Notes: generated by a model not told the origin, from the sequence alone. Counted from the first letter of the stretch, positions 1 to 18,708 are shown. The stretch is 64,000 nucleotides of DNA from Nitrosomonas sp. (GCF_024282095.1 NZ_JAMWZS010000008.1:6090-70089); one strand, 5' to 3'. A program made the numbers and translations.

Positions 1-382
1 AACTGGCTGAAATAAAGGGTCGAACTGATGATGCGTCCGTACTCAACCCGGCGCAACTTGATCAAATTCGGAGTCTGGATATTTCTGGAAAGCATAGACT
101 GCTTCAAAGAATTCTACATACCTTTCTTGAGTCTACTGAGGTTATATTCGTCAGCTTGAGCAAGCAATAATAAATGGTGATACAAATACTCTATATCGAA
201 CCGCACACACACTGAAGTCCAGTTCAGCTAATATTGGTGCTGAAGACTTATCGGCAATATTCAAACAGCTGGAAAGTTGTGGGAAAGCTGGGGAATTAGT
301 AAATGCAAGATTGCTACAGAAAAACTTGCAGCAACATTATCAACAAGTAATAACCGAAATTAGAAAAATACTCGACCAATGA
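1..382 (+). pseudogene. C-terminal HPt (histidine phosphotransfer) domain of a probable hybrid sensor kinase, partial at the window edge and frameshifted near 140
   Basis: Frame 3 reads LAEIKGRTDDASVLNPAQLDQIRSLD...LHTFLESTE and stops at about 168-170. Frame 2 opens at 140 with GYIRQLEQAIINGDTNTLYRTAHTLKSSSANIGAEDLS...RKILDQ* (TGA 380-382), which carries the HPt motif AHTLKSSSANIGA. One extra G in GAGGTT (138-143) would join the frames. Confidence 0.7.
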
Positions 383-491
383 TGACCGTAGAATCTACTG
401 AAACTTTATCGTCATCAATAAATTGATGAAGGATTTTTCCTTTTCGGAAAGCGGTTACTCATCCAGGCAGCTGAATCCACAGGAATAAATT

Positions 492-2432
492 ATGAAAGTA
501 GCTGATATTAATCAGTTAAAAATTAGCACGTTGTTACCCAGTCCCAAAGGCGTGGCGCTTGCCTTATTGGAAGCCTGTCGGCGAGAAGACGTAACGATCA
601 ATGAGATCACTAAACTTGTCCAAACCGATCCTGCACTCTCGGGTCGTTTGATCCAGCGGGCCAATTCGACCAATCAGACTACGCGTGCTATCACTTCTGT
701 GACAGAAGCGATTTCTCGTGTCGGTTTACTGTCAGTTAAACAACTGGCAATGGGATTCTCACTGATCGATCAATATCAAAAAGGCTCTTGCAAGGAATTC
801 GATTACCAGGAATTCTGGTCACATTCGCTCCTCATGGCAATTGTGATGCAAGAATTAGGTAAGTCGACACGGATATCTGCATCGGATGAATTGTTCGCTT
901 GCGGTTTGATGGCGCGCATCGGTTGTTTAGCGTTAGCTACAATTTATCCGGATAAGTACAGTGAATTAATAGCGCAACAAACGCTCGATACACCGCTGAT
1001 CAGGCTGGAACAACAGCATCTGAAGACTGATCACAACGAATTGACCGCAGCAATGTTGATTAATTTTGGTGTTCCCAAGATTTTTGTTGAATCTGTCTAT
1101 TACCATGAAACGCCGGATGAGTCGGGCTTTTCTGAAGGGTCCCGCCCGTTTCAACTGGTACATTTATTTTATTTAGGAAAGCAGATTGCTGATTTTGGAT
1201 TGGCCGAGGAGTCAGAGCGTAACCAACGAATTTCCGAGTTGATGCTGCTGGGTGGAAAAATCGGTTTGGATGCCGAGTCATTTGGCGCATTGATAGATCA
1301 GGTTATGCAGGAATGGCAGTCGTGGGGGAAAATACTCAAGATATCCGCTGTAGAGCTTCTCCCGCCGTTTCATAAGATGATAAATGCGGCTGCGCCGCGT
1401 CAGGAAAATGACACAGATGTTGCTCCACTGCGGATCCTCGCAGTAGAAGATGATCCATCCAGCCTCATTCTTATCGAGGGATTGCTGGCGAGTACTCGTG
1501 GGCACACATTATTTACCGCAAGTAACGGCCAACAAGCCTTATCTTTAGCGATGGAAATCTCGCCGCATATTGTCATCACTGATTGGATTATGCCGGTGAT
1601 GAGCGGGCTGGAATTAACTAAATCTTTGCGTGCTACCGAATGGGGTCAGAATTTATATATTATTATGCTGACTGGCGTTGAAGACGAGGAAGAAGTCGTC
1701 AAGGCCTTTGATGCAGGCGTCGATGATTATGTGACAAAACCGATCAATTCACGTGCTTTCCGAGCCAGATTACGGGCAGCGTGGCATTATCGAAAGTTGC
1801 AAGAATCCTGGGAGCGTGACCGGGAGCAACTCAAGCGTTTTGCTGCAGAACTGGCCGTCACCAATCGTAAGCTGGAACATTTTGCATTAACCGATGTATT
1901 GACTGAATTGCCTAATCGGCGTGCAGGTATGGAAGCATTAACCGATGTATGGAGTGTTGCGAACCGATCGGGTCAACTGATGGCTGTCATGCTGATTGAT
2001 ATTGATCACTTCAAAAATATCAATGACACCTATGGGCATGCCATTGGCGACAAGGTGCTCAAAGAAGTAGCCATATCGATGAAAGACACTGCGCGAAAAG
2101 GCGATACTTTTTGTCGCATGGGGGGAGAAGAGTTTCTGATTGTTTGTCATAATGGAAATACCGATGCAAAATCTGTTGTTCTTTTTGCAGAGAGAATCCG
2201 CCAACATGTCAGTAAGCAACAAATTCATATTGATGAAGCTCACATTAATATTTCTGTCAGTATCGGCGTTGCCTTAAAAGAAGCGAGCATGAAGAACGAG
2301 GAGCATTTGGTCAATACTGCTGATAAGGCACTTTACGCCGCTAAGAATGCAGGGAGAAATAGAGTTTTTCTGGCACTCGGTGATCGGTTCATTAGCTGTA
2401 GCTCGGACAAACCACTCAATCATTTCGATTAA
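492..2432 (+). CDS. HDOD-REC-GGDEF diguanylate cyclase
   Basis: HDOD start (LPSP...DPALSGRLIQRANS), receiver domain (ILAVEDD...ITDWIMPVMSGLEL...DYVTKP), intact GGEEF with an upstream RxxD I-site (RKGD). Confidence 0.9.
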   Translation: MKVADINQLKISTLLPSPKGVALALLEACRREDVTINEITKLVQTDPALSGRLIQRANSTNQTTRAITSVTEAISRVGLLSVKQLAMGFSLIDQYQKGSCKEFDYQEFWSHSLLMAIVMQELGKSTRISASDELFACGLMARIGCLALATIYPDKYSELIAQQTLDTPLIRLEQQHLKTDHNELTAAMLINFGVPKIFVESVYYHETPDESGFSEGSRPFQLVHLFYLGKQIADFGLAEESERNQRISELMLLGGKIGLDAESFGALIDQVMQEWQSWGKILKISAVELLPPFHKMINAAAPRQENDTDVAPLRILAVEDDPSSLILIEGLLASTRGHTLFTASNGQQALSLAMEISPHIVITDWIMPVMSGLELTKSLRATEWGQNLYIIMLTGVEDEEEVVKAFDAGVDDYVTKPINSRAFRARLRAAWHYRKLQESWERDREQLKRFAAELAVTNRKLEHFALTDVLTELPNRRAGMEALTDVWSVANRSGQLMAVMLIDIDHFKNINDTYGHAIGDKVLKEVAISMKDTARKGDTFCRMGGEEFLIVCHNGNTDAKSVVLFAERIRQHVSKQQIHIDEAHINISVSIGVALKEASMKNEEHLVNTADKALYAAKNAGRNRVFLALGDRFISCSSDKPLNHFD

Positions 2433-2589
2433 ACAGCATCTGCCAATCAACTTCTCCTGCCCCTCTTGTCGATAGCGAGCCTTAACCCCGACTTCCGTAC
2501 CTCCGTAGTAATTCCATTCGGTTTAATGTGAGTTTCCGGATGCTTAAATTATGACATAATTAGCCGTCCTAACTATTTATGATCTAAAA

Positions 2590-3165
2590 GTGACCAAGCA
2601 AAATTCTTTTATTCATTATTCGATATTTTTTTTGGTTGGCATGTTTGGCCTATCAGCAATACACAACCCTGTTCGAGCCGATAATGGAATATGGATTGAT
2701 GTTGATACCATTGAACACACGTTATCGGTGATGCAGGGCAGTACTATTCAAGCAGTATTTAAGAATGTAGCTATCGGGCGCTATGGTACCACTTGGTCCA
2801 AGATGACAAAAGACGACAAAACCCCATTAGGTAGATTCAGAGTCGGCTGGGTCAACGAAAAAAGCCGCTATTATCGTTTTTTTGGCTTGAATTATCCAAA
2901 TCTCGATACAGCTAAACGTGCATTGGATGAAAACAGAATTTCTGAAGAAATTTGGTTATCAATTTTAGAAGCAAAGAACTTGGGAAAGACGCCACCTCAA
3001 AATACACCATTGGGTGGTCACATCGGAATACATGGAATTGGCAGGGGCGATCAAGAAATTCATCATAAATACAACTGGACAAATGGCTGTATTGCGCTCA
3101 CAAATGAGCAGATCGACCAGCTTGGTAAATGGATAAAACCCGGTATCTTAGTGAATATTCGCTAG
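2590..3165 (+). CDS. L,D-transpeptidase family protein (YkuD fold; YafK/COG3034-like)
   Basis: Signal peptide; DDKTPLGRF...LNYPN...GGHIGIHG...WTNGCIALTN with catalytic His and Cys. Confidence 0.8.
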   Translation: MTKQNSFIHYSIFFLVGMFGLSAIHNPVRADNGIWIDVDTIEHTLSVMQGSTIQAVFKNVAIGRYGTTWSKMTKDDKTPLGRFRVGWVNEKSRYYRFFGLNYPNLDTAKRALDENRISEEIWLSILEAKNLGKTPPQNTPLGGHIGIHGIGRGDQEIHHKYNWTNGCIALTNEQIDQLGKWIKPGILVNIR

Positions 3166-3443
3166 AAACCCGGGCAGTCAGCCTATTGATATCATTCGAT
3201 ATGTTGCTAAATACTTGAATTGGTCACTCGAATTAAATAATAATTTACGTCATATAGTTACAAGGTAATCCATGGTTTTGGGATGAGCGTTCTTGTAAAT
3301 TTGTCACAGAATCCATTTATTTTGCAGAAAAAATCAGATAAGATTCCAACGGGTTGCTGATATGTAGGTATCAGTAGCTAGTAAAGTGGCGGATGTTTAT
3401 GCGCATTAAAGCATTAAATAGAATAAACACTGAGGAGATCGGA

Positions 3444-3722
3444 ATGAAAGAAAAAATCAAGCATCCAGTTCGCGTTTTAACACTGGCAGCAATAGCAGGT
3501 GCTTTTATTGGATTAACAGGTTGTGCAACCACAGGTCAGTTAGAAGAATTACAGACTAAAGTTAATGCTGTTGCAGCTGACGCAGCAGCAGCTAAAGCAG
3601 AAGCAGCCGCTGCAAGCGCTAAAGCAAATGATGCAGTACGTATTGCTAATGAAGCAAACAATCGTTCAATGGAAACAGAATCAAAAATTGATCGGATGTT
3701 CAAAAAAGCAATGCATAAGTAA
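3444..3722 (+). CDS. Lpp/OprI-like alanine-zipper outer-membrane lipoprotein
   Basis: SD GAGGAG at 3432-3437 precedes ATG 3444; lipobox LTGC; Ala-rich coiled coil; C-terminal Lys (KAMHK*). Confidence 0.85.
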   Translation: MKEKIKHPVRVLTLAAIAGAFIGLTGCATTGQLEELQTKVNAVAADAAAAKAEAAAASAKANDAVRIANEANNRSMETESKIDRMFKKAMHK

Positions 3723-3747
3723 TCAGTTAGTATTCACAGTAAGAATC

Positions 3748-3777
3748 AAAAAAGCCCCTCATCTGAGGGGCTTTTTT
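3748..3777. terminator. Bidirectional Rho-independent terminator
   Basis: AAAAAA-GCCCCTC-ATCT-GAGGGGC-TTTTTT between the convergent lipoprotein and LDT genes. Confidence 0.85.
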
Positions 3778-3799
3778 ATGAATCACCTCGCTTCACTCT

Positions 3800-4786
3800 T
3801 TAATTATTTTGTGTATGGAATTGAATTTGATGGCGTGAACGTGAGATTAAAACCGGTATTCCATTTTTCTCGATGATTGCTTTTCTTAAAACTTCCTGAT
3901 CAATTTCAAAATCCTCAGTTATATTTTTCTTACTACTTTTTAATGCAAGAAAGTCATTGATAGCATTTATTGTCATTTGTTTGTAGTTAGCAAATTTCTC
4001 TTCATCTTCTTCCAATGGTGGGTGCAGTTCAATAAACAGTGAGTCCAGCAGCCAGCCGACTTTAATAGGCTGATTAACGACCTGCACTTGCGTTCCCAAT
4101 GGAATTTTATCAAATAATGCTTCGATATCTTCAGGGTACATGCGGACACACCCAGCTGAAACACGCATGCCAACACCGAACGGCTTGATTGTTCCATGTA
4201 TCAGATAACTACCGCCACCGATACTTAAGCGCATAGCATGCCGACCCAAGGGATTAGTTGGGCCCGGTGGCACCACACTGGGGTAAGGCTGCTCCCCATT
4301 AGCTATCCGATCCATTTGAAGTGATTTCGGCGGTGTCCAGGTTGGATCTTTCTTTTTATCAACGATCTTTGACACGCCCAGTGGGGTCACCCAATCCATT
4401 CGACCAATCCCCACCGGATGCGTAATAATCATAGGCTTCTCTCCTCTGACAGGTTCCGGGAAGTAGTAAATTCTCATTTCAGGTAGATTGAGTACCAAGC
4501 CTTTGCGATCAGCATGAGGGATAATATATCGACTTGGCAAAACAACTTTTGCACCATCTTCGGGTAACCATCGATCAACCGTCGGATTGGCCAGCAGAAT
4601 CTCAATCTGGCCAATATCGTATTGACGTGCTATATCCAGTAGCGTCTCCTCACGACTTGCATGAGTAGTTCGTATTTGGCCAAAAATATCGACATCATGT
4701 GGCGGAAGCACCCATGTTTCAGCACGAATAGCAGAAACAACAACAAAATTAATTGTGGCAAAAATAAGCAGGGAAAATCTATACAT
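3800..4786 (-). CDS. LysM-containing L,D-transpeptidase (ErfK/YbiS/YcfS/YnhG family)
   Basis: Signal peptide, LysM-like ETLLDIARQYDIG, NLPEMRIYY, HPVGIGR, catalytic LIHGT...SAGCVRM. Confidence 0.9.
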   Translation of the reverse strand: MYRFSLLIFATINFVVVSAIRAETWVLPPHDVDIFGQIRTTHASREETLLDIARQYDIGQIEILLANPTVDRWLPEDGAKVVLPSRYIIPHADRKGLVLNLPEMRIYYFPEPVRGEKPMIITHPVGIGRMDWVTPLGVSKIVDKKKDPTWTPPKSLQMDRIANGEQPYPSVVPPGPTNPLGRHAMRLSIGGGSYLIHGTIKPFGVGMRVSAGCVRMYPEDIEALFDKIPLGTQVQVVNQPIKVGWLLDSLFIELHPPLEEDEEKFANYKQMTINAINDFLALKSSKKNITEDFEIDQEVLRKAIIEKNGIPVLISRSRHQIQFHTQNN

Positions 4787-4920
4787 AAGTCATATCGTAC
4801 AGTATCAACGAAAGAAATAACTACGACAAATGGAATAATAACTGAAATCTTCTTGATAAAAGCAGAAAAACAAATGCAAATTTGAATAGTTAGCCAAGAA
4901 AGCCATCGTGACAACCTCTT

Positions 4921-5064
4921 TAGCAGACCGTTGAAAAACTATCTGCGTTGCCGCTACGGTGTAAAAACAGGCTCAACATGCTCATTTAGCATACATACAC
5001 TACGCTTTCTCACCTGTTTTTGTCTGGTATCGGTTGTCCGAAAGCGTTTTTCAACGGCCCGCTA
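4921..5064. mobile_element. ~140-bp palindromic MITE-like repeat, copy 1
   Basis: Imperfect 18-bp terminal inverted repeats TAGCAGACCGTTGAAAAA / TTTTTCAACGGCCCGCTA; internal stem AAAAACAGG (4963-4971) / CCTGTTTTT (5013-5021); homologous copy near 51600. Confidence 0.8.
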
Positions 5065-5065
5065 G

Positions 5066-5690
5066 ACATACCAGAAAGGGTTTCATCCCACGACGAAGCG
5101 GCTTTCCTTATAGTGCTCCAGCCTTTACGCCAAATTCATAGCGTCTATACACCTTACTCTTTCTTTCACTACCAAGGCATATATACACTGTAACACCGTA
5201 CGTTTATCATTGCGTTGTAGCGTGGATTCTTTTGGCAATCCCGGCAACCAATTGAACCGAGGATGGTTTAGAGGGTGTCGATCGATGGTTTACAGCTTGC
5301 AATGTCACGAATCATTCTTTCAACGTAGATTCGTACCACTGTTATTTGCGCCTAGCTCATTAAATCTGCCGCACGCGTAGTACACAGCTTGTATGTATTC
5401 ATCAGGAACACACACTTTGAGACCGTTCAATCTGCTTCGGCAAGGCAATTCTCAGTTATTTCGCTTGCTTCACCAGCGTTTTTATCGCTAGTAAAAACCT
5501 CTTCTCAGCAAACTACCACAACTTCATTCGATTCGTTGGATTACTGGCTTCAGATAGCGCTCCACCATCAACCGGATCGGTATACCGGGGTGCCTTTTCT
5601 AACAACCCATCAATTTGCTGCTCTGCTAAAAGACAAGTTCGTCTTTTCAACGAAACGGATAGGATGTCTATTAACTCAGCATTTGCCTCG
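5066..5690 (-). pseudogene. Highly degraded IS5-family transposase remnant (boundaries approximate)
   Basis: Minus-strand fragments in different frames (LVKQAK*LRIAL, ERMIRDIAS, RRYEFGVKAG, ESRFVVG*NPF) recall IS5-type transposase motifs such as KPYEFGVK and GRxIRDI; many stops and frameshifts. Confidence 0.55.
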
Positions 5691-5737
5691 ATTCCAGCAA
5701 TCCAACATACTCCTAAAGTGACAATATTTAGAAATTC

Positions 5738-5890
5738 TCAGGGTTTATCAGGAGCAGGTTCAGAGTCTCTCGGTGCATAAGCAGATGGAGGTGGTTTATC
5801 CATCGGGTAGCCGTCCAGACTTTTCTTTCCTTCACAAGCAGTTAATACTAATATTGCAAATGCCGTGGCTAATAGTGAAAATTTAATCAT
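5738..5890 (-). CDS. Small lipoprotein, 50 aa (not in ORF track)
   Basis: MIKFSLLATAFAILVLTAC-EGKKSLDGYPMDKPPPSAYAPRDSEPAPDKP*; lipobox LTAC; GGAG SD upstream. Confidence 0.75.
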   Translation of the reverse strand: MIKFSLLATAFAILVLTACEGKKSLDGYPMDKPPPSAYAPRDSEPAPDKP

Positions 5891-6074
5891 TTAATCTCCG
5901 TGTTTTTCTGTTTACTTGTGTGTAATAGCATAATCGAAGTAGTTTGATTATACAAATTTGAGTTAAATGATTGAATAGCTACAAAGTGTAAAGTTGGATA
6001 TGCTCAACATCCTTCTATCTGACACGCAAATAAAAAATATTGCTTGGCAATCTGCGGTCTTAAATACTTCCAAA

Positions 6075-6105
6075 AAAACAACCGCCCTCTAAAGGCGGTT
6101 GTTTT
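6075..6105 (-). terminator. Rho-independent terminator downstream of the 39-aa lipoprotein gene
   Basis: AAAACAACCGCC (6075-6086) / GGCGGTTGTTTT (6094-6105); U-rich tail on the minus strand. Confidence 0.75.
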
Positions 6106-6130
6106 AAACTAAAAATAAACCAATATTTCA

Positions 6131-6250
6131 TTATTTAGGTGTGCCTTCACGATCATCCATAAAACTGGGTGGATATTGACCTGGTTTTGGCTCACCGCAA
6201 CCAACCAAAAAAGTCGCTAAAAGGGCAGCAATCAATAGAGAGTATTTCAT
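6131..6250 (-). CDS. Small lipoprotein, 39 aa (not in ORF track)
   Basis: MKYSLLIAALLATFLVGC-GEPKPGQYPPSFMDDREGTPK*; lipobox LVGC; AGGAG SD; own terminator. Confidence 0.75.
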   Translation of the reverse strand: MKYSLLIAALLATFLVGCGEPKPGQYPPSFMDDREGTPK

Positions 6251-6428
6251 ATTCTTTATCTCCTATATTCAAAAAAATTTTTGACGAAAAAATAAATTAT
6301 GTAAAACAGCTCATCGATCATTCAGAAATAATAAATGACCACAACCTTAATACCAGAATACAATAATACTGTCCAGAAAAATTAGAGAAATCTATAAAAT
6401 ATCAAATGACAGGAGGTTTGTTAGCTGC

Positions 6429-7526
6429 TTAATTCTTACTCATGATATAACCGCTAACATACCATTGATAAAGGATTTTTTTAGTCTCATTCCCAGTTTC
6501 TGAAGATGGCAGAAATTCCTGATTGTCAGCAAGTTTAATGAGTTCTTTGTATGTATTAATACTTACTTTATAGACTTCACCATTGATGAAAATTTTGTTA
6601 TTACCGCTTAACATTCTACTTTTTAAGTTAAGCTGCACACCATTTTCTTTAATCTGCTGCTGAAATATAGTGGGTGCCAAAGGCTTCGCAGGTTGTTCAA
6701 AAAAAACATGCGTTTTAGGTTCTGAAAGATAAATACCCAGAAAATCTTCGATATCACTGCGGTTCCATTTAATTTTCTTCAATATCGAATTCACCTGAGA
6801 CTGCATTGCTGCATTGATTTTTGACGGATGGGGTTGCAATTGCAAGTCAGGATCGGAATACCTGCCTTCCACCGCAACATTATCTTGCAGATAATCCAGA
6901 AATTGCGTTATCAACTCATGATGACTCGGTGCGCGAAAACCAATGGAATAGGTCATACAGTCACCTTCCGCAATACCGTTATGCGCATAATGAGGCGGCA
7001 GATACAGCATATCACCAGCTTCCAGCACCCATTCCTGTTCGGGTTGAAAATTCCTCAAAATCTTCAGTGGCGCATCAGCAATGAATTGATCGTCCTGTTG
7101 TGCGGATATCTGCCAGCGCCTGGATCCCATTCCTTGTAATAAAAACACATCATAGGAATCAAAATGCGGCCCGACTCCACCGCCTTTAGGCGCATAGCTC
7201 ACCATTAAATCATCCAGGCGAGCATGGGGTATAAAACGAAATTTTGATAATAAATCACGCGCAGATGGAAGAAAATGGTTCACATCCTGTACGAGCAGCG
7301 TCCATTGCTTTTTAGGCAATTTTGACAAATCATTATTACTGAACGGGCCATGCCTGAGATGCCATTTACCATTTTTCTGAACGACAAGGCGGGATTGTGC
7401 ATCTTCATCACATGCCAGCTTCATTAATTCATCGGGTGTTAACAAACCATCGAAACCGGGCAGAGCATTTCTTATCAACAAAGGCTGCTTTTGCCAATAA
7501 TCACGTAAAAAATCTTTGGGCGTCAT
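6429..7526 (-). CDS. roxA: JmjC/cupin 2-oxoglutarate oxygenase, RoxA/YcfD-like (ribosomal protein uL16 hydroxylase family); start uncertain (7526 or 7622)
   Basis: FLRDYWQKQPLLIR, DDLMVSYA..GGGVGPHFDSYDVFLLQG (HxD) and YLPPHYAH (distal His). The ORF-track start at 7670 overlaps msrA by more than 100 nt. Confidence 0.8.
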   Translation of the reverse strand: MTPKDFLRDYWQKQPLLIRNALPGFDGLLTPDELMKLACDEDAQSRLVVQKNGKWHLRHGPFSNNDLSKLPKKQWTLLVQDVNHFLPSARDLLSKFRFIPHARLDDLMVSYAPKGGGVGPHFDSYDVFLLQGMGSRRWQISAQQDDQFIADAPLKILRNFQPEQEWVLEAGDMLYLPPHYAHNGIAEGDCMTYSIGFRAPSHHELITQFLDYLQDNVAVEGRYSDPDLQLQPHPSKINAAMQSQVNSILKKIKWNRSDIEDFLGIYLSEPKTHVFFEQPAKPLAPTIFQQQIKENGVQLNLKSRMLSGNNKIFINGEVYKVSINTYKELIKLADNQEFLPSSETGNETKKILYQWYVSGYIMSKN

Positions 7527-7554
7527 TCCCGCCAAAGCGATAGCCTGTATTTTA

Positions 7555-8208
7555 TTAATGCTCAGTCCCCCACAATTCTTCCAGGCGTTTATCACGTCCA
7601 CAGTTTTTTCGGTAATATCCATATCGAAGTGGATTCTTGATGTAATAATCCTGATGATATTCTTCTGCACGGTAAAATTCGGAGGCGGATAGAATCTCCG
7701 TCACAATAGGCTGAGTAAATCGACCGGATGCTTTCAGCGCCTTTTTTGAAGCCTCTGCCAATTCTTTTTGGTCAGGATTAAGGTAAAAAATCGCACTGCG
7801 ATATTGTGAGCCAATATCACAAAACTGTTGGTTAGGTGTCAGCGGATCAATCGTTAACCAATAAGCTGCCAATAATTTAGAGAAACTGGTTTTTGACTTA
7901 TCAAAATGAACTTGCACAGCTTCCACATGCCCCGTTCTGCCAGCAGATACTTGTTTATACGTTGGATTTATCACTGTACCGCCAATATAACCCGATGTGG
8001 TCGAAACGACTCCGGGTATTTTGTCAAAATCAGATTCAGTGCACCAAAAACAACCGCCGGCAAAAATTGCCACCTCTAGATTCTCGCTTGGTACCTGTGC
8101 AGTTGCTGATTCTGCGATGGGTGTATCCATTTGCTGGCAAGCACTCAATACTAATATGGACAGCAATAAGACAATCATAAAATGCCGTCGACAAAGCCAC
8201 GTCCACAT
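7555..8208 (-). CDS. msrA: Peptide-methionine (S)-S-oxide reductase MsrA with lipoprotein signal
   Basis: GGCFWC active site, AEEYHQDYY; lipobox VLSAC; ATG 8208 follows GGTGAG and the msrB stop. Confidence 0.9.
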   Translation of the reverse strand: MWTWLCRRHFMIVLLLSILVLSACQQMDTPIAESATAQVPSENLEVAIFAGGCFWCTESDFDKIPGVVSTTSGYIGGTVINPTYKQVSAGRTGHVEAVQVHFDKSKTSFSKLLAAYWLTIDPLTPNQQFCDIGSQYRSAIFYLNPDQKELAEASKKALKASGRFTQPIVTEILSASEFYRAEEYHQDYYIKNPLRYGYYRKNCGRDKRLEELWGTEH

Positions 8209-8212
8209 ATAC

Positions 8213-8740
8213 TCACCCCCTCGGTGCCGGCAGTTGATCGGTTTCCAGTACAAACTTTAGCGCCAGTCCGTTATTACACCAGCGCTCACCTCGCGGTGGC
8301 GGTCCATCTTTGAAGACATGCCCCTGATGCCCTCCGCATCGTATACAGTGATATTCAGTGCGCAGAAAAATCAGCTTAAAGTCGCGTCTTGTCCCCATAT
8401 GCCCAGGAATGGGCTGTGTAAAGCTCGGCCATCCAGTCCCGCTCTCATACTTATATTGACTTTCAAACAGCGGCAAATAGCATGCGGCACAGATAAAGGT
8501 CCCTGCTCGATGCTCATGATTTAATTCGCTGCTTCCAGGTTCCTCGGTATGCTCTTCAAATAAAACCCGGTAGGCTTCCGGCGACACCAATCCACGCCAT
8601 GCTTCATGGGGTTTGTTGAGTGGCTCGATTGCAGTTTGCGGATTAATATCACCCGCGACCAATTGTGCCGGTAACAAAAATGAAAGCGCGGGTAAAGCAG
8701 TAACTACACTCATTCCTTGAAGAAAGATGCGTCGTTTCAT
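8213..8740 (-). CDS. msrB: Peptide-methionine (R)-S-oxide reductase MsrB with Tat signal
   Basis: MKRRIFLQ twin-arginine motif; CAAC and CIRC Zn ligands; GWPSF, HQGHVF, RWCNNG. Confidence 0.9.
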   Translation of the reverse strand: MKRRIFLQGMSVVTALPALSFLLPAQLVAGDINPQTAIEPLNKPHEAWRGLVSPEAYRVLFEEHTEEPGSSELNHEHRAGTFICAACYLPLFESQYKYESGTGWPSFTQPIPGHMGTRRDFKLIFLRTEYHCIRCGGHQGHVFKDGPPPRGERWCNNGLALKFVLETDQLPAPRG

Positions 8741-8930
8741 AAGAAGCTCCTCGTTGAGTTAATGAAGTCCGATACTGCATTGCACAAAAATTAACCTCAA
8801 CCGATCAAACGGGTGTTACTCGTAATTGAAGACGCTAGCTCAGGATTGGCATCATTTTGATTAACTCTGCCCTGCAGATTTACCTACAAATCCTGTATCA
8901 TCACGGTTTTAGGATTATATCTTAGTCTAC

Positions 8931-9899
8931 ATGAAAATCACTTTTCTGGAATTTGAACAAAATATTGCAGAATTTGAATCAAAAATAGATGAGCTACGCT
9001 TTGCTCAAGATGACTCTGCACTGGACATTTCATCTGAAATCACACGATTACAGGCAAAAAGCCAATCACTCACAAAAAATGTCTATGCAAAATTGACCCC
9101 ATGGCAAATTTCGCAAGTCGCCCGACATCCGCAGCGCCCCTATACGCTGGACTATATAGAACATCTATTCACAGATTTCGAAGAATTACACGGCGACCGG
9201 AATTTTTCTGATGATCATGCGATTGTGGGCGGTTTGGCACGTTTCAACGGCCAAACCATTATGGTCATCGGTCATCAGAAAGGACGTGATACCCGGGAAA
9301 AAATTTATCGTAACTTTGGCATGCCGAAGCCGGAGGGTTATCGTAAAGCGTTGCGCCTAATGCGTTTGGCTGAGAAATTTTCCATCCCGCTGATTACTTT
9401 TATCGATACGCCGGGTGCCTATCCGGGTATCGATGCAGAAGAGCGGGGACAATCTGAAGCCATCGGTAAGAATCTTTACGTCCTGGCAGAATTAAGAGTG
9501 CCTGTGATCTGCATCATTATTGGCGAAGGTGGCTCCGGCGGTGCCTTGGCGGTAGCGGTCGGTGATGTGATACACATGCTGCAATATGCCACCTATTCCG
9601 TCATCTCTCCTGAAGGTTGCGCCTCCATTCTATGGAAAAGTGCAGACAAGGCACCGGAAGCCGCAGAGATTATGGGTATTACCGCCGATCGGCTGAAAGC
9701 AATGAATTTGATCGATAGTATTATTACTGAACCCATTGGCGGAGCGCATCGCGATTATCCGGCAGTGATGCAATCGGTAAAAACCGTTTTACAGGAATCG
9801 CTCCGCAAACTTCAAGATCATTCTACCGAGACACTTCTGGAAAAACGCATCGAGCGACTCATGGCATATGGCTCATATAAGGAAGTCAAAGTCGAATAG
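8931..9899 (+). CDS. accA: Acetyl-CoA carboxylase carboxyltransferase alpha subunit
   Basis: [42 protein letters not shown]. Confidence 0.97.
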
Positions 9900-11226
9900 C
9901 CTGGTATGTGATACTAAAAAAGTATTACTTGCACATATTAAACAGGGTAATCATTTAACGATTGCCTTGAGTGGCGGTATAGATTCGATCGTATTACTGC
10001 ATGTACTTGTCATGCTATCCAAGCAAATGCAATTTACGCTTTCTGCTGTGCATGTTAATCATGGCATCAGTCGCAATGCAGTACTGTGGAGCAGATTTTG
10101 CTGTGATCTTTGTTACGCTTATGGCATTTCTGTCTACGTTGCGTATATACACATCCCCAAAGAATCCGGTATAAGCCTTGAAGCGGTTGCTCGCGACGAA
10201 CGCTATCGCATTTTTAATCACGTACAAGCTGATTATGTGGTGCTCGCACAGCATTTGGACGATCAAGCCGAAACATTGTTATTACAATTATTTCGTGGTG
10301 CAGGCATTAAAGGATTAAGTGCCATGCCGGTTGTGAGAAAACAACTCTCTGATAATGCACCGCAAATACTCCGGCCGCTACTGGAAGTTTCTCGCAGCAG
10401 GATCGAATCCTACGCACGGCAAAATAAATTGAACTGGATCAACGATGAAAGTAATGACAGTATTACTTTCGATAGAAATTTTCTGCGTCATGACATCCTG
10501 CCCATATTGAGAGGGCGATACCCCAATTACTCTCAAACGCTGTTACGCACCAGTCGTCACTTGTCCGAAGCATCGTTGTTATTGGATGAGCTGGCTGCAA
10601 TCGATAGTGAAGATTGCCTGGTTTCCGGTAAGCTTCAAGTCGATGGCCTACGTCAACTGAGTTTTCCGCGCGCCAAAAATCTGTTTCGCTATACTTTGTT
10701 GCAACAGGGTGCGGATCTCCCCAGCACAGCGAAATTAGAAGAAATTTTGCATCAACTTTTATCGCTATCTTCGGATAATCAATTCCATATCAGCTTTGGC
10801 ACTACTGAAATTCGTTGTTATCAAGGCGCTGTCTACATATTAGCTAGAAAAAAACTTTCGGAGCAACCCGAACAATGCCAATACATATGGCGCGGCGGAG
10901 CGTTTTTAACGCTGCAACATTTGAGTGGCACCGTTCGTTTTATCCAGGCAGAAAATCAAGGTATCGATCAACAGAAAATATTAAATAAAGTAATAACTGT
11001 GCGTTCGCGTAGCGGTGGAGAACGTTTTACACCGGCTTGTAACCGTCCGCGACGAAGTTTAAAGAACCTATTACAAGAAGCTTCGATACCGCCATGGGAG
11101 CGTACTATGATGCCATTGCTGTTTTGTGATGATAAGCTCATATGGGTACCGGGAATCGGCATTGACTGTGAATTTCAAGTAAAATCCGGTGAACTGGGAA
11201 CGCTACCTATCTGGAATCGTGAGTGA
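9868..11226 (+). CDS. tilS: tRNA(Ile)-lysidine synthetase
   Basis: PP-loop [26 protein letters not shown]; conserved position after accA. Confidence 0.95.
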
Positions 11227-11305
11227 GAGTAGGTTATGTAATTTTGGAAACAATAGGAACTTTAAAGATTATTCATACAATCAATTTATTCTCTAAGGAT
11301 GCTTC

Positions 11306-12370
11306 ATGATTCTGGTCACGGGTGGCGCGGGATTTATCGGCAGTAATTTTATTCTGGATTGGCTGACGCAATCTGATGAAAAAATTGTAAATCTTGATAA
11401 ATTAACTTACGCGGGTAATTTGCAAAACCTGTCCTCATTAACGGGAAACCCAAGACATATTTTTGTGCATGGGGATATCGGGGACATCGAACTCGTTTCA
11501 CGATTATTGGCTCAGCATCAGCCCCGGGCCATTATTAATTTCGCCGCTGAGAGTCATGTAGATCGTTCGATCCATGGTCCGGAAGACTTTATTCAGACCA
11601 ATATTCTGGGCACATTCCGCTTATTGGAGGCGGTACGTGCTTACTGGAACGAACTCGAAACAACCGCAAAACAGAATTTCCGCTTTCTCCATGTTTCAAC
11701 CGACGAAGTATATGGTTCGTTGAGCCAGAATGAGCCCGCATTTACTGAGGAACATCGCTATGAGCCCAATAGCCCCTATTCCGCCAGCAAAGCTTCCAGT
11801 GATCATTTGGTGCGGGCTTATCACCATACCTACGGTCTGCCTGTACTGACTACAAATTGCTCGAATAATTATGGTCCTTTCCAATTTCCGGAAAAACTGA
11901 TCCCTTTGATGATTGTTAATGCATTAACAGGGAAATCCTTACCGGTATATGGTGATGGTCTGCAAATTCGTGACTGGCTATACGTGACCGATCACTGCAG
12001 TGCGATTCGCCGTGTTTTAGCAGCAGGTAATCCGGGAGAAACTTATAATATTGGCGGCTGGAATGAGAAACCCAACATTGAAATTGTGCAAACAATCTGT
12101 AATTTATTGGAAGAATTATATCCAGGTTCTATCTTTCATCATCTGATCACTTACGTCAAAGACCGGCCGGGACACGATCGTCGTTATGCCATCAATGCCA
12201 CCAAAATTGAACGCGAGCTAAACTGGAAGCCAGCGGAAACCTTTGAAACAGGCATCCGTAAAACTATTCATTGGTACTTGGAAAACCGGCAATGGATTGC
12301 TGATGTTCAAACTGGTGCATACCGGGAATGGATAGAAAAGAATTACGCTGAGTTACAGTCATCGCAATGA
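11306..12370 (+). CDS. rfbB: dTDP-glucose 4,6-dehydratase
   Basis: [46 protein letters not shown]. Confidence 0.96.
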
Positions 12371-13269
12371 AAATTTTGCTATTCGGTAAAAATGGTCAGG
12401 TAGGATGGGAGCTGCAGCGGAGTTTAGCGCCTTTAGGCGAACTAATTGCATTAAATTCAGCAAACGATGAGTACTGTGGTGATTTTACCAATCTTGCAGG
12501 CATCAAACAAACGATACGAAAAATTGCACCCGATATCATTGTCAATGCCGCCGCTTATACTGCTGTGGATAAAGCTGAAAGTGAAACGGAATTAGCACAT
12601 ATCTTAAATGCGCAGGCCCCTGGCGTGCTTGCACAAGAAGCAAAGCAATTGAACGCTTGGTTGGTTCATTATTCTACAGATTATGTTTTTAACGGCAGTG
12701 GTGAGCAACCGCACCTTGAAACAGATGCGACGGATCCCCTCAATGTGTATGGAAAAACCAAACTGGAAGGTGAAAACAATATTGTTGCGTCCGGATGCTC
12801 ACATTTAATATTCCGTACCAGTTGGGTTTATGCAACGCATGGCAATAATTTTATTAAAACGATACTGCGTTTAGCACAGCAACGTGACAAGTTAACAATT
12901 GTCAATGATCAGATTGGTTCACCCACCGGTGCAGAATTGATAGCGGATATTACTGCCTACGCGTTACTTTCATTAAGGCATCAGCATGAGGTTTCCGGCT
13001 TATATCACTTGGTAGCCAAAGGATATACATCATGGTATGAATTTTCCCGTTTTATCTTGGAGCATGCGAGACACGCAAATCTTCCATTAAAAATTCAACC
13101 GCATGCCCTTCTGCCCATAACGAGTTGTGATTTTCCTTTGCCTGCAAAACGCCCATTGAATTCACGCTTAAATACTTGTCAGCTGGAAAAGAGATTTAAT
13201 TTAAATCTGCCCGCTTGGCAAACGGGCGTATCTCGTACATTGACTGAGATTCTAAGCAAGGAAATATGA
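12367..13269 (+). CDS. rfbD: dTDP-4-dehydrorhamnose reductase
   Basis: [38 protein letters not shown]; ATGA overlap with rfbB. Confidence 0.95.
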
Positions 13270-13561
13270 TGCGCTCGGTGTTTAACCTTCCGCTACATCC
13301 GCAAGGCCGATGATCGTATTTCTTTCGAGTGTTCCCTGCGCTTCCTGAGTTCTGTATTTCAGTCAATCGGATAGATTTCGTAAGGGGCAATATGTATATA
13401 GTTGCCTGTTTCGGTTGATATACCGAAGGTAAATATGAAGAGCCTCTCGGTTAAACCAAAAACAAAAACTTGCTTGAATGATTGGTTAAGTTCGTTATAT
13501 ACTCATTTTTTTAACTAATAGTTAAAGAAAAAGAGAACTTTTTTATAAGGAAAATTACACA

Positions 13562-13708
13562 ATGAAATATACTCTTCTGGCTGCATTTTTACTGGCTCTT
13601 CTAACATTGTCTGCATGCGGTGGCAAACCTAGCCAAGCGCTGCCTGAAACCGAAAAAGCAAACTATGAGAAAATCATGAGCGGTGGAGAAGCAGATAGCA
13701 AAAAATAA
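13562..13708 (+). CDS. Small lipoprotein, 48 aa (not in ORF track)
   Basis: MKYTLLAAFLLALLTLSAC-GGKPSQALPETEKANYEKIMSGGEADSKK*; lipobox LSAC; AAGGA SD; terminator follows. Confidence 0.75.
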   Translation: MKYTLLAAFLLALLTLSACGGKPSQALPETEKANYEKIMSGGEADSKK

Positions 13709-13732
13709 TCCCTCTGTTTGAGGAATTAATAA

Positions 13733-13764
13733 AAAACCGCCTTTCAAGGCGGTTTTGTTTTTTT
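13733..13764. terminator. Bidirectional Rho-independent terminator
   Basis: AAAACCGCCT-TTCA-AGGCGGTTTT with flanking A and T runs, between the small lipoprotein gene and bamC. Confidence 0.8.
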
Positions 13765-13897
13765 AAATTTACAAACTCATTTTCTAGCGTATTTGACTTG
13801 AATTGTTGAAAATTTGCCTTACTCTAGAACACTGCAAGGAGAAAATAAAATATTCAGCTATCTTTCCAGGAAGTTTATGCCAGCCTGCTCTCCTCTG

Positions 13898-15061
13898 CTA
13901 TTTAAGCTGTTCATGTAATAGCTTCAGAATACGACTGGTAGTAGCAGAATTTGTTGCCGTTCCATCATCATTGAGCAAAGTAACCTTGCTGGTATTGGTT
14001 CCGGTATTATCAACGTGTATGCGGTATTTTGCAGCTTTTGCATCTGCCTTATCATCACTACGCCAGAACATAATTCCCGACAGAATACCTTCGCCATCGC
14101 CTTTTTTCTTACTATCGTTATCAGGATTGACATAGCGAACAAAATAAACACCTTCCACCCGATTACGGTCCTCAACGGTAAAACCGATGCGATCAAGCGC
14201 CAGCCCGACGCGTCGCCATGATCTGTCAAACGCTTCATTGATGATCAGTGTGCTTCCTGTTTCCCGGTCAATGTAGGCGCGTTCTTGAGTAGTGCTTCTA
14301 CCCGTAGTTAACTCCAACTTGGCTTGTTCTTCTGCTACACCAAAACGCATCATCAACCGGGATAGCATTTCAGCTTCCAAGTCAGGATCAGCGGGACGAG
14401 GCTGCCAGATGGTGCGGTTAAGACTGCCTCCTTCCAGCACTTCATTCATACCGCGGTGACTGATATATATTTCAGTGCTACCCGTTTCATTGCGCTCTAG
14501 ACGGGTACGAAATTTATCACGCTCAGCAGTGGAATAGATACTATCCAGGAAAGTGGAGAGAAAAGTTCGTACAATGTCTTGTGGAATCTTGGCTCGATTC
14601 TCGGCCCAGTCTGTTTCCATAATACCTGCTTCAGGGACTTCCATTTTGATCAGGAAACCCAATTCCTGCCAGAATTCTTTGACTACCGGCCATACCATTT
14701 CAGGTGATTGCGGTACAACCAGCCAGCGTTGCGTGCCGGCGCGCTCAATATGTACATTCTGAATCGATGACGGTATAAAGGAAGGCGTGCCAGCCTTGGG
14801 TTGCCCGCCACGTTCGCTGCTATAGGCAGAAAACGTTGTGCTACTACTGGACGAGTTGGACTCAGGAATTGAGTAGCGCTCATCAATCGCAGGTTGAATC
14901 AGATCAGGCGGAATATCCAAGGGGGGAAGTTTTCCAGCCGACTTGTAATCAATACTCTTGGTTTCAGGAAACAGATCGAGCATCTTACAGCCCGTGTTTG
15001 TCAATGAAAGCACCAATACTAGCGACGGCACGGTTACTTTCCGCCATTTCATTTTTGACAT
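13898..15061 (-). CDS. bamC: Outer-membrane protein assembly factor BamC (NlpB/DapX lipoprotein)
   Basis: Lipobox NTGC, IDYKSA..LPPLDIPPDL, GIMETDWAENRA; directly downstream of dapA. Confidence 0.88.
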   Translation of the reverse strand: MSKMKWRKVTVPSLVLVLSLTNTGCKMLDLFPETKSIDYKSAGKLPPLDIPPDLIQPAIDERYSIPESNSSSSSTTFSAYSSERGGQPKAGTPSFIPSSIQNVHIERAGTQRWLVVPQSPEMVWPVVKEFWQELGFLIKMEVPEAGIMETDWAENRAKIPQDIVRTFLSTFLDSIYSTAERDKFRTRLERNETGSTEIYISHRGMNEVLEGGSLNRTIWQPRPADPDLEAEMLSRLMMRFGVAEEQAKLELTTGRSTTQERAYIDRETGSTLIINEAFDRSWRRVGLALDRIGFTVEDRNRVEGVYFVRYVNPDNDSKKKGDGEGILSGIMFWRSDDKADAKAAKYRIHVDNTGTNTSKVTLLNDDGTATNSATTSRILKLLHEQLK

Positions 15062-15062
15062 C

Positions 15063-15950
15063 TTACTCCTTCAAATCACGGATATTGGCCGATTGCATGG
15101 CTTCGCGAATAAGCTGATGATACTGAGCGGATAACGGTGTGAGGGGAAGGCGAATTCCAAGACCCATTAAGCCCATTTGTGCAACAGCCCATTTCACAGG
15201 AATCGGATTAGCTTCGACAAATAAATCGATATGTAAGCGTAACAGCTGATTATTGAGCGCTCGAGCGGTCTTCAGATTGCCAGCAAATGCGGCCATGCAC
15301 ATGTCGTGCATCATTCTGGGAGCTACGTTTGCTGTGACTGAAATAACACCATGCGCACCTAATAACATCAGTGCTAATGCACTGACATCATCTCCGCTAT
15401 AGATGGAAAAACCCGCTGGCGCGCGCGCTAATAAATCAGAGCCTCGTCCAATATCGCCGGTTGCATCTTTAATACCCACAATATTGGGAATCTGTGTCAA
15501 ACGTAATGCGGTATCGTTGTGGATATCTGCAACGGTCCTACCGGGAACGTTATATAAGATATGCGGAATTTCAACCGCCTCCGCAATTGCCTTAAAGTGC
15601 TGATATAGCCCTTCCTGAGTGGGCTTATTGTAATAAGGGGCAACCGAGAGGCAGGCATCTACTCCGGCATTTTTTGCGTAAATCGATAAATCAATCGCTT
15701 CACGGGTTGAATTAGCACCCGTACCTGCAATGACCGGTATGCGTCCAGCAACATGATCCACTGCAGTGCGCATGAGTAGATGGTGTTCTTCAAAATCCAC
15801 AGTGGGAGATTCGCCTGTAGTGCCAACTACCACAACACCATCGGTACCCTGGTCTATATGAAAATCAAGAAGAGAGCGGAAACGTTCCAGATCTAATCCA
15901 CCCTCTTCATCCATCGGAGTAACGATGGCAACCAAGCTACCTTTAAACAT
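15063..15950 (-). CDS. dapA: 4-hydroxy-tetrahydrodipicolinate synthase
   Basis: GTTGES, AGTGAN, PYYNKP, YNVPGRT, GIKDA, SGDD, NPIPVK. Confidence 0.97.
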
Positions 15951-16030
15951 GACAACTTATCCAGTAAAAAAAATATATTTTACCCGAATCTCGTTGAGAC
16001 GCTATGTTTTAATCAATCGATATCAGCGTT

Positions 16031-18643
16031 CTATCCATTCATTTTAGAAAAACTGATTCTGTCATCGCTGCAGTCAACTTTAATCGTATCTTTGGCAATA
16101 AATTTACCCTCCAGGATCTCTTTTGCCAGCGGATTTTCAATTTGCGCCTGGATCGCGCGCTTTAAAGGTCGCGCACCGAATACCGGATCAAAACCAGCTT
16201 GAGAAATCACGGATAATGCTGCATCGCTAACCTCAAGTTTCATTTCCAGTTTGGCCAGTCTGGTTTCAAGATAGTGAAGCTGTATCTGCGCAATTGAATG
16301 AATATGTTTTTGATCCAAAGCATGAAACACCACGACCTCATCAATACGATTAATAAATTCAGGGCGGAAATGAGCTTTTACCTCACCCATCACTGCATGC
16401 TTGATCGATTCATATGGACTGTCGGACATTTCCTGGATCATTTGCGAGCCCAGGTTGGACGTCATGACAATCACCGTATTCTTGAAATCGACGGTACGCC
16501 CCTGACCATCCGTCATACGACCATCATCCAGAACTTGTAGCAGCACATTGAATACATCCGGATGCGCTTTTTCCACTTCATCCAGCAAAATGACGGCGTA
16601 GGGTTTTCTGCGCACGAGCTCAGTTAAGTAACCGCCTTCTTCATAACCGACATAGCCGGGCGGCGCCCCAATCAGACGTGCTACCGAATGTTTTTCCATA
16701 AATTCGGACATATCGATACGTATTAAATGGTCTTCTGAATCAAATAAAAATCCGGCTAACGCCTTACACAATTCAGTTTTACCTACACCGGTCGGTCCCA
16801 GAAACAGGAATGATCCATAAGGCCGGTCAGGGTCAGCCAATCCGGCACGGGAGCGCCGGATCGCATCGGATACCAAACGTACCGCCTCATCCTGACCGAT
16901 TACCCTGTCATGTAATTTTTGTTCCATCAACAACAATTTTTCACGTTCACCTTGCATCATTTTAGACACAGGAATACCGGTGGCACGCGATACTACTTCC
17001 GCAATTTCTTCAGCACCAACTTGGGTGCGCAATAATTTAGGTGCGGCTGCAGAACCTGATTCAGTTTTTACGCTTTGCTGTTTTTGGTCACTGAGTTGGG
17101 ATTGCAATTGCGCTTCCAATTGTGGAAGGCGGCCATATTGCAATTCCGAGACTTTTTGCCAATCGCCTTTGCGAGTGGCCGCTTCGATTTCCAGCTTGAT
17201 CTTCTCCATCTCCTCCTTGATTTGCTGGGAACCTTGCACATGGAATTTTTCAGTTTTCCAGATTTCATTCAAATCAGCATACTCACGTTCTTTTTGCTTT
17301 ATTTCATCCTCAAGTAATTGCAGGCGTTTCTGTGAAGCCTCATCTTTTTCTTTTTTTATTGCTTCACGCTCGATTTTGAGCTGTATCAGGCGTCGATCCA
17401 GCTTATCCAGTGCTTCGGGTTTGGAATCAATTTCCATACGAATGCGCGCTGCGGCTTCATCAATCAGATCAATGGCTTTGTCAGGCAGAAAACGATCAGT
17501 GATATAACGATTGGACAGTTCCGCAGCAGCGACAATTGCCGGATCGGTAATATCAACACCGTGATGTACTTCGTATCTCTCCTGTAAGCCGCGCAGTATC
17601 GCGATGGTGGCTTCCACAGTAGGTTCTTCTACCAATACTTTTTGGAAGCGTCGCTCCAGCGCAGCATCTTTCTCAATATACTTGCGGTACTCATCCAAGG
17701 TAGTGGCACCGACACAGTGCAACTCACCGCGCGCCAATGCGGGCTTTAGCATATTACCCGCATCCATTGCGCCTTCCGCTTTGCCTGCGCCCACCATGGT
17801 ATGCAGCTCATCAATGAATACAATGGTTTTTCCTTCGTCTTGTGCAAGTTCTTTCAACACTGATTTGAGACGCTCCTCAAATTCCCCCCGGTATTTGGCA
17901 CCTGCCAGGAGTGCGGCCATATCCAAAGAGAGCACACGCTTATCTTTCAAGCTTTCAGGTACCTCGCCATTGATAATGCGCTGCGCCAAGCCTTCAACAA
18001 TGGCGGTTTTGCCGACACCCGGCTCACCAATCAGGACAGGATTATTTTTAGTGCGCCGTTGCAAAACTTGTATCGCACGGCGAATCTCATCGTCACGTCC
18101 GATGACTGGATCCAACTTGCCTTGACGTGCGCGTTCGGTAAGATCCAGGGTATATTTTTTTAAGGCTTCGCGGCTGCTTTCAGCTTCAGCGCTGCTGACT
18201 TGTTCACCGCCTCGTATCGCATTGATGGCCTTTTCCAAAGCTGTGTGATTGGCACCATGCTGCTTGAGTAAAGTACCAATCTCGCCTTTGTCCTGCAGGA
18301 TTGCCAAAAGAAACACCTCTGAAGCAATAAACTGATCGTTGCGTTTTTGCGCTTCTTTGTCTGCCAAATTCAGTAGGTTATTCAGCGTGCGAGAAATATT
18401 TACTTCCCCTCCTGAATTTTCAACTTTGGGTAATCGCTGCACGCTTTGCTTGATGCTTTCCAGCAATGGAGCGGTATTGACGCCGGAACGTTGCAGCAAA
18501 GAGAGTGTACTGCCATCTTCCTGTTGCAGGAGCGCCAGTAGTAGATGCTGCGGCTCAATTGCCGGATTATCCTGACCGACAGCGATGCTTTGAGCATCTG
18601 CAAAGGCTTGTTGAAATTTGGTGGTTAGTTTGTCAAAACGCAT
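16031..18643 (-). CDS. clpB: ATP-dependent chaperone ClpB
   Basis: Two AAA+ modules ([16 protein letters not shown]), coiled-coil middle domain, 870 aa. Confidence 0.97.
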
Positions 18644-18674
18644 GAAATTCTCCCTCCGTAGGTTATTGGCTCCT

Positions 18675-18702
18675 ACGTGGGGGGCGGTGCCGGAATTTCA
18701 AG
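18675..18702 (-). promoter_or_regulatory. Putative sigma-32 (RpoH) promoter of clpB
   Basis: Minus strand CTTGAA-N14-CCCCAC(GT) about 35 nt upstream of the clpB ATG; matches the CTTGAA-N13-15-CCCCAT consensus. Confidence 0.7.
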
Positions 18703-18708
18703 AGCGGA

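Follow-up and report, generated by a model that had tools for sequence, protein, structure and literature searches.

Three tiny, conserved lipoprotein genes of the family Nitrosomonadaceae, whose ancestral tandem array is split by an inversion in a Nitrosomonas genome

The window, i.e., the whole stretch of 64,000 nucleotides of Nitrosomonas sp. DNA analyzed in this study (GCF_024282095.1, NZ_JAMWZS010000008.1:6090-70089), harbors three very small prolipoprotein open reading frames (ORFs), designated A, B, and C. Gene A (5738-5890, minus strand) encodes 50 aa and comprises the signal peptide MIKFSLLATAFAILVLTAC, predicted to be cleaved before Cys, and the mature part EGKKSLDGYPMDKPPPSAYAPRDSEPAPDKP. 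Gene B (6131-6250, minus strand) encodes 39 aa, with MKYSLLIAALLATFLVGC preceding the mature peptide GEPKPGQYPPSFMDDREGTPK, and gene C (13562-13708, plus strand) encodes 48 aa, with MKYTLLAAFLLALLTLSAC preceding GGKPSQALPETEKANYEKIMSGGEADSKK. The source assembly, denoted G000 with its contigs given as C5, C18, etc., is 2.8 Mb in size, features a G+C content of 46%, and is 99.97% complete on 81 contigs; the labels G012, G014, G020, and G023 refer to relatives. An earlier note, made from the DNA of the window alone, had described three small lipobox ORFs with Shine-Dalgarno (SD) sites and short mature parts rich in Pro, Asp, Glu, and Lys, and all of these features were recovered. The SD sequences are GGAG (5899-5896) for A, AGGAG (6264-6260) for B, and AAGGA (13547-13551) for C. 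Each product begins with MIK or MKY, followed by 13-15 hydrophobic residues and a lipobox, namely LTAC (Cys19) in A, LVGC (Cys18) in B, and LSAC (Cys19) in C, in agreement with the pattern for bacterial (Lgt/LspA/Lnt) lipoproteins, [LVI][ASTVI][GAS]C after a charged n-region and a hydrophobic h-region. The mature parts, including the Cys, are 32, 22, and 30 residues long for A, B, and C, respectively.

By itself, the lipobox pattern represents weak evidence for a gene, and a genome-wide scan for small lipobox ORFs (25-80 aa) returned 68 pattern matches, most of them spurious. Since such patterns also arise at random, it could be argued that the three are mere chance ORFs of non-coding sequence. 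The observation is nevertheless solid because it is based on conservation, purifying selection, and synteny rather than on the lipobox pattern. Matches to B were obtained in all 24 same-genus genomes compared (E<1e-3), without internal stops and mostly with 2-7 copies each, while C was matched in 23 and A in 19 of these genomes. A hidden Markov model (HMM) of the B family matched 146 of the 151 genomes of the GTDB family Nitrosomonadaceae, covering all four genera. Pooled pairwise Nei-Gojobori estimates on orthologs yielded ratios of nonsynonymous to synonymous substitution (dN/dS) of 0.11 for the mature part of A (dS 1.7), 0.32 for B, and 0.16 for C; for the signal peptide of B, the ratio was 0.13. 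At a synonymous divergence of about 0.9-1.8, these values of 0.11-0.32 indicate that the peptide sequences are under purifying selection. Two of the checks named in the earlier note, namely, conservation of the reading frames and dN/dS in relatives, thus turned out in favor of the genes, with open frames and ratios well below 1. The chance-ORF explanation is refuted by the conserved frame, the dN/dS far below 1, the conserved SD and promoter sequences, and the synteny in all four genera, leaving it a virtually negligible probability. Open and conserved frames, low dN/dS, conserved SD sites and promoter-like blocks, synteny, and existing database entries together make it almost certain that A, B, and C are genuine lipoprotein genes.

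The assumption that these genes are unannotated and missed by standard annotation did not hold, since the exact A, B, and C proteins are deposited in NCBI nr and A is also present in UniRef. Homologs are listed there as 'hypothetical protein', 'Lipoprotein', 'Lipoprotein-attachment site-containing protein', or, from the Joint Genome Institute (JGI), as 'predicted small lipoprotein YifL'. Public orthologs and paralogs of the three are 50-98% identical and all uncharacterized, e.g., Nit79A3_1157 and Nit79A3_0605 of Nitrosomonas sp. Is79A3; the names carried by homologs put the source genome in Nitrosomonas, close to Is79A3, Nm166, and N. ureae, and the UniRef 'Lipoprotein' and 'Lipoprotein-attachment site-containing protein' entries originate from N. 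ureae, N. cryotolerans, and Nitrosovibrio tenuis. No family model of Pfam or NCBIfam covers A, B, or C, for which only sub-threshold matches confined to the signal peptide were found. Likewise, the Rfam scan of window positions 1-20000 gave no match, the locus tags of the Is79A3 homologs are not mentioned in the searchable literature, and literature searches for small lipoproteins of Nitrosomonas found nothing relevant.

The distribution of the three families is narrow. Searches in 16 other families of the order gave no match below E=0.004 for B (listed to E<=1) and, for A and C, none at E<=0.1 except one at 0.053, while the A profile returned a single marginal match (E=8e-4) among 196 genomes of the order from outside the family. 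When 1.84 billion representative proteins were searched exhaustively with the B profile (HMMER), no more than 39 clusters matched at E<=0.001. In 17 of the 19 clusters read, the lipobox was followed by a motif of the KPGQYPPS type and a variable tail, mostly acidic and about 10-270 residues long; a C-type protein and an unrelated repeat protein made up the other two. Homologs with a named source came from Nitrosomonas, Nitrosospira, and Nitrosovibrio, and a few others belong to loosely binned metagenome-assembled genomes. In each of the other three genera, 1-3 copies of amoA were detected (in complete genomes for two of them and in a draft for the third), and Nitrosomonadaceae is therefore a family of ammonia oxidizers. 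The A, B, and C families are specific to this family. In the source draft assembly, AmoA (PF02461) gave no match at E<=1e-5; complete relatives carry 2-3 identical amoA copies, and the multi-copy amo operon was probably lost from the draft by assembly dropout.

Within the families, conservation is unevenly distributed. The Cys of the lipobox is invariant in the alignments of A, B, and C, and in all three the invariant columns crowd directly behind this lipidated residue, while the tails differ in length and sequence. The core of A reads C-E-G-K-K-S-L-D-G-x-P-M-D-K-P-P-P-S-A..R-D-S, with 19-21 invariant columns, and the invariant core of B is K-P-G-Q-Y-P-P-S. For C, the core is C-G-(G)-K-P-x-Q-A-L-P-E-T-E-K-x-N-Y-E-K, in which the residues G-x-P-x-Q-A-L-P-E-T-E..N-Y/F-E-K are invariant. 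The +2 residue of A, B, and C is Gly or Glu and not Asp.

The earlier note had further proposed a dispersed paralogous family, which gained support from several sides. In profile-profile comparison, the alignment of A with B extends past the signal peptide into PPS...R(D/E), with KPPPSAYAPRDSEP placed against QYPPSFMDDREGTP, and that of B with C runs through GEPKPGQYPP / GGKPSQALPE; in the exhaustive search mentioned above, the B profile also matched a C-type protein with GGGKPGQALP (E=5e-5). Among 179 lipobox ORFs of the genome, the start MKY[ST][LIFV][LIFV] is limited to B, C, and a B-like copy of 57 aa (G000:C18:14334-14507), and the A orthologs of other species begin with MKYS. Further copies are located at G000:C56:517-672 and G000:C80:16977-17168 (distantly C-like, ACG(G)KPTAPE) as well as at G000:C5:19263-19445 (minus strand), the latter featuring the C-terminal module of long C proteins and an ACCGCC-type terminator. 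The profile alignments, the MKY start, the terminator type, and the copies on C18, C56, C80, and C5 support the view that A, B, and C are diverged paralogs, consisting of an ancient tandem array plus dispersed copies.

The arrangement of the genes was evaluated by marker-gene synteny in 12 Nitrosomonas genomes and genomes of three other genera, complemented by blastn comparisons with G023, G014, and G020. The usual order consists of rfbD-rfbB-tilS-accA on one strand and msrB-(msrA)-rox-B-A-C on the other, convergent with bamC-dapA, and the order rox-B-A-(D)-C was seen across all four genera sampled. Domains identified in the rox product are JmjC_2 and a ROXA-like winged helix; next to C, the protein of 387 aa corresponds to NlpB/BamC. 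In the window, the block containing A, B, rox, msrA, msrB, accA, tilS, rfbB, and rfbD (5738-13466, roughly 7.7 kb) is inverted relative to 10 of the 11 relatives sharing the locus. As a result of the inversion, A and B reside on the minus strand, whereas C is found on the plus strand at a distance of about 7.3-7.7 kb to the right. The description of two tandem genes and one 7 kb away is therefore correct for the present layout, but not for the original state: C lies about 7 kb away because the inversion split the tandem trio, the B-A-C array being ancestral and its split in the source genome secondary. Only G020 has the orientation of the source genome; the DNA beyond A is different there, and the inversion in G020 may represent an independent event.

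The junctions of the inversion can only be bracketed, by non-conserved DNA at 4787-5752 and 13270-13466. Homology to relatives ends at about 5753 and about 13466, irrespective of whether these are non-inverted (G023, G014) or inverted (G020), and the identical stop points in both orientations indicate mere ends of conserved sequence. A palindromic element is located inside the left bracket (4921-5064). A rewriting of the C-terminus of A by the inversion was considered and discarded, since this tail varies in all species.

The fourth member of the array, D, is located between A and C in two of the other genera (g18 and g19) and encodes a protein with a C-like N-terminus and an LDGNGN...GH C-terminal module. 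A D-related module, CPHGLDGNGNCLKEG..RPYGGTSKPGH, is carried by some Nitrosomonas C proteins. In its Cys/His form, C-x-H-G-x-D-x-N-G-x-C-L-K-E-G..R-P-Y/F-G-G-x-S-K-x-G-H, this module is fused to C in some Nitrosomonas and resides on a separate small lipoprotein in the source genome, the loci listed being the above-mentioned copy on C5 (19263-19445, minus strand), L039 10034-10255, L045 4553-4777, and L043 7041-7259. In the D proteins of g18 and g19 (Nitrosospira-type), the module is devoid of Cys, and in the g19 genomes it ends in GH. The Cys/His module could be a metal-binding or disulfide-loop module. In G012, gene C is duplicated in tandem (L040 on contig C28, 9665-9796 and 9808-9939), the two 43-aa copies being separated by 11 nt, which indicates that the array still expands by local duplication.

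Regarding transcription, oriented cross-species alignments revealed a conserved SD site and a promoter-like block of its own in front of each of the three genes. For C, a sigma-70-type promoter, TTGAAT-18-TATACT, was predicted by consensus scan at 13474-13503 (plus strand), its -10-like element occupying 13498-13503, within the cross-species block cTTGCTTGAAtGAT...TTCGTTATATACTGC. The promoter-like block of A (5921-5960, minus strand), CAAATTTGTATAATc-N-tTCGATTATGCTATT with a -10-like element at 5947-5952 and the SD GGAG downstream, is kept in nine of the ten genomes aligned. The intergenic region between rox and B (6277-6384, minus strand) contains a conserved TGGACAG...TTCTGGTATTAAG...TGGTC as well as a conserved TGTTTTACATAATTT with a -35-like TTTACA.

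The similar ACCGCC/GGCGGT terminators that had been noticed after two of the ORFs are real. The intrinsic terminator of B (6074-6105, minus strand) consists of AACAACCGCC-loop-GGCGGTTGTTTTTTT; terminator-like hairpins were present 3' of B in all nine genomes compared, with a stem of the AAACCGC/GCGGTTT type only in the five closest. The terminator of C (13733-13756, plus strand), AAAACCGCC-loop-GGCGGTTTT plus a T run, is bidirectional, and AAAAACCGCC...GGCGGTTTTT is kept 3' of C in all species compared. No terminator was found for A in the source genome, and variable hairpins occur in some relatives only. Since T-tailed hairpins with an ACCGCC/GGCGGT stem number only three in the 2.8-Mb genome, namely after B, C, and the paralog on C5, the resemblance of the terminators among family members exceeds chance. 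The promoter-like blocks, together with the terminators of B and C, indicate separate monocistronic units.

What the three peptides might do in the cell was deduced by analogy. The reading that we favor, to which a probability of about 0.45 is assigned, is that A, B, and C are outer-membrane lipopeptides docking via a linear motif on a conserved, family-specific envelope partner. Lipidation of Cys18/19 and cleavage of the signal peptide would yield peptides of 21-31 residues, lacking a fold of their own, which the Lol system would sort to the inner leaflet of the outer membrane, as suggested by Gly or Glu, and not Asp, at +2. The nearly invariant Pro-rich motif behind the anchor (KPGQYPPS in B, EGKKSLDGYPMDKPPPSA..RDS in A, and KPxQALPETE in C) would represent the functional part, each motif possibly docking as a short linear peptide on a conserved partner in the envelope, e.g., a machine or barrel of the outer membrane, while the C-terminal tail would be a dispensable, variable acidic extension. 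Docking is favored because the invariant anchor-proximal motif, the +2 Gly/Glu, and a tail varying from a few to about 270 residues correspond to the design of LptM. In LptM, a lipoprotein of ~6 kDa, position +2 is Gly, a conserved motif (PF13627) lies close to the anchor, the C-terminal part shows little conservation, and the acylated N-terminus together with the residues following it binds the hinge and barrel of LptD (PMC10567701).

Several points weigh against docking. The proximity of bamC offers little help, being convergent and not operonic, and the gene neighborhoods of the dispersed copies on C18, C56, C80, and C5 yielded no partner or functional clue. The rule for sorting by the +2 residue stems from E. 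coli and may fail in betaproteobacteria, and the linear motif might just as well serve for modification, or as a substrate of a protease or another enzyme, rather than for docking. In addition, the supplements of a proteomics paper on three species of ammonia-oxidizing bacteria (PMC5960693) contained no match by protein name, the accession numbers not being searchable.

The likeness to LptM also raises the question of whether the three genes encode additional paralogs of LptM (YifL) that work at the LptD/E translocon. Shared traits are the tiny size, Gly at +2, a short Pro-containing motif after the acylated Cys (CGLKGPLYLP in LptM versus CGEPKPGQYPP in B), and a poorly conserved, disordered tail; moreover, JGI assigns the YifL name to some homologs, and weak matches to NF047847 were obtained. 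However, these matches (15.5 bits for B and 14.9 bits for C against a cut-off of 27.7) align only profile positions 1-21, i.e., the signal peptide, and PF13627 gave no match at E<=10 for A, B, and C, nor for the paralogs and longer homologs. The motif GxKGPLYxP of LptM differs from KPGQYPPS and its counterparts, and A, B, and C fail both family models. The source genome encodes a separate, canonical LptM directly upstream of lysA (G000:C7:97716-97790, minus strand, GTG start, about 44 aa, VRLFFTTLLLTYLLSAC followed by the mature GLKGPLYLPLPKTDEV..., with CGLKGPLYLP), which passes both models with 36.1 bits on NF047847 and 27.5 bits on PF13627 (cut-off 27.3). Orthologs of lptM are defined by PF13627 and a conserved neighborhood (PMC10567701); A, B, and C reside between rox and bamC and lack the lysA/dapF synteny of LptM. 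Finally, LptM is widespread in Proteobacteria, whereas the A, B, and C families are limited to Nitrosomonadaceae and absent from the other LptM-bearing families of the order. Membership in the LptM family is thus considered very unlikely. A broader variant, in which the B-A-(D)-C array would provide LptM-like subunits, each plugging into a different outer-membrane machine (Bam, Lpt, or a porin) and evolved because Nitrosomonadaceae would build an unusual outer membrane, also appears distinctly unlikely.

The acidic, low-complexity tails of the homologs, with their very variable length, would suit an action by bulk properties, either as disordered, lipid-anchored 'bristles' (cation binding, periplasmic spacing or hydration) or as O-glycan carriers modified on the Ser of PPS, which is invariant in both A and B. 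The genome encodes a Wzy_C-domain (O-antigen-ligase-type) protein of about 400 aa (G000:C42:26527-27003, minus strand), but no PglL_A signature was found anywhere in the genome. In the source genome, the tails are almost absent (B possesses 21 mature residues), yet the motif is invariant, which implicates the motif rather than bulk charge and renders such an action unlikely.

The C-terminal residues also bear on a function as Lpp-like tethers linked to peptidoglycan through a terminal Lys by L,D-transpeptidases. The Braun lipoproteins Lpp/OprI are small outer-membrane lipoproteins of the abundant type, and B and C end in ...TPK and ...DSKK, respectively, as do many orthologs in Lys. This residue is not conserved, however, since A ends in ...DKP and orthologs in NN, EE, GH, KD, or SQ. 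AlphaFold2 (AF2) modeling of A from a 20-sequence alignment predicted the signal-peptide helix and one helical turn, the rest being coil (predicted template modeling score 0.30), and the mature peptides are thus predicted to possess no autonomous fold. The three are much shorter than Lpp and OprI, lack coiled-coil heptads, and show no more than a single predicted helical turn after the signal peptide, which makes them highly improbable candidates for such tethers.

The same AF2 coil is relevant to the entericidin-like function suggested in the earlier note. The genes ecnA and ecnB form a tandem pair of small lipoprotein genes, and the tandem layout and product size of about 40-50 aa in the present case recall them. 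In contrast to the Gly/Ala-rich, amphipathic, membrane-active mature parts of EcnA and EcnB, those of A, B, and C are charged, hydrophilic, and Pro-rich, without an amphipathic helix, and no match to the Pfam entericidin family (PF08085) was obtained at E<=10. Furthermore, the genes are not accessory but belong to the universal core of the family, and no export or processing genes adjoin them. Membrane-active toxin/antidote lipoproteins, or secreted signaling lipopeptides, accordingly represent an extremely improbable explanation, whereas docking of the conserved motif on an envelope partner is retained as the favored reading.

In summary of their type, A, B, and C are uncharacterized, lineage-specific families of a known general kind, namely, tiny lipoproteins with disordered mature parts, and nothing about them is mechanistically surprising yet. 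Nitrification in soils, waters, and wastewater plants is driven by beta-proteobacterial ammonia oxidizers, whose energy metabolism is located in, or enclosed by, the envelope. Three to four of these peptide-sized lipoproteins, with almost invariant motifs of 8-25 residues, are kept in nearly all genomes of Nitrosomonadaceae. They are absent from the genomes sampled in other families of the order, which number 16 to about 200 according to the gene, and the B family is also missing from the rest of the 1.8-billion-protein library. The array therefore offers a compact, testable handle on lineage-specific envelope biology, its practical weight being moderate. Very small conserved genes may already reside in databases as nameless 'hypothetical proteins' without a family model, and the definition of three small families would improve annotation.

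Two minor observations concern the surroundings of rox. Within the rox-B intergenic region, the block at 6335-6384 (minus strand) is kept genus-wide as TGGACAG-N-ATTCTGGTATTAAG-N-TGGTC, in which TCTGG is repeated about 20 nt apart; the block could be a regulator binding site. A sigma-54 promoter (TGGCAC-N5-TTGC) in this block was rejected, since its -12 element is not kept across species, as was a sigma-E promoter, for lack of GGAACTT (both read by eye). The longest rox ORF (6429-7670, minus strand), with its GTG start at 7670, shares 116 nt with the 3' end of msrA (7555-8253, minus strand), and the true start of rox probably lies further downstream.

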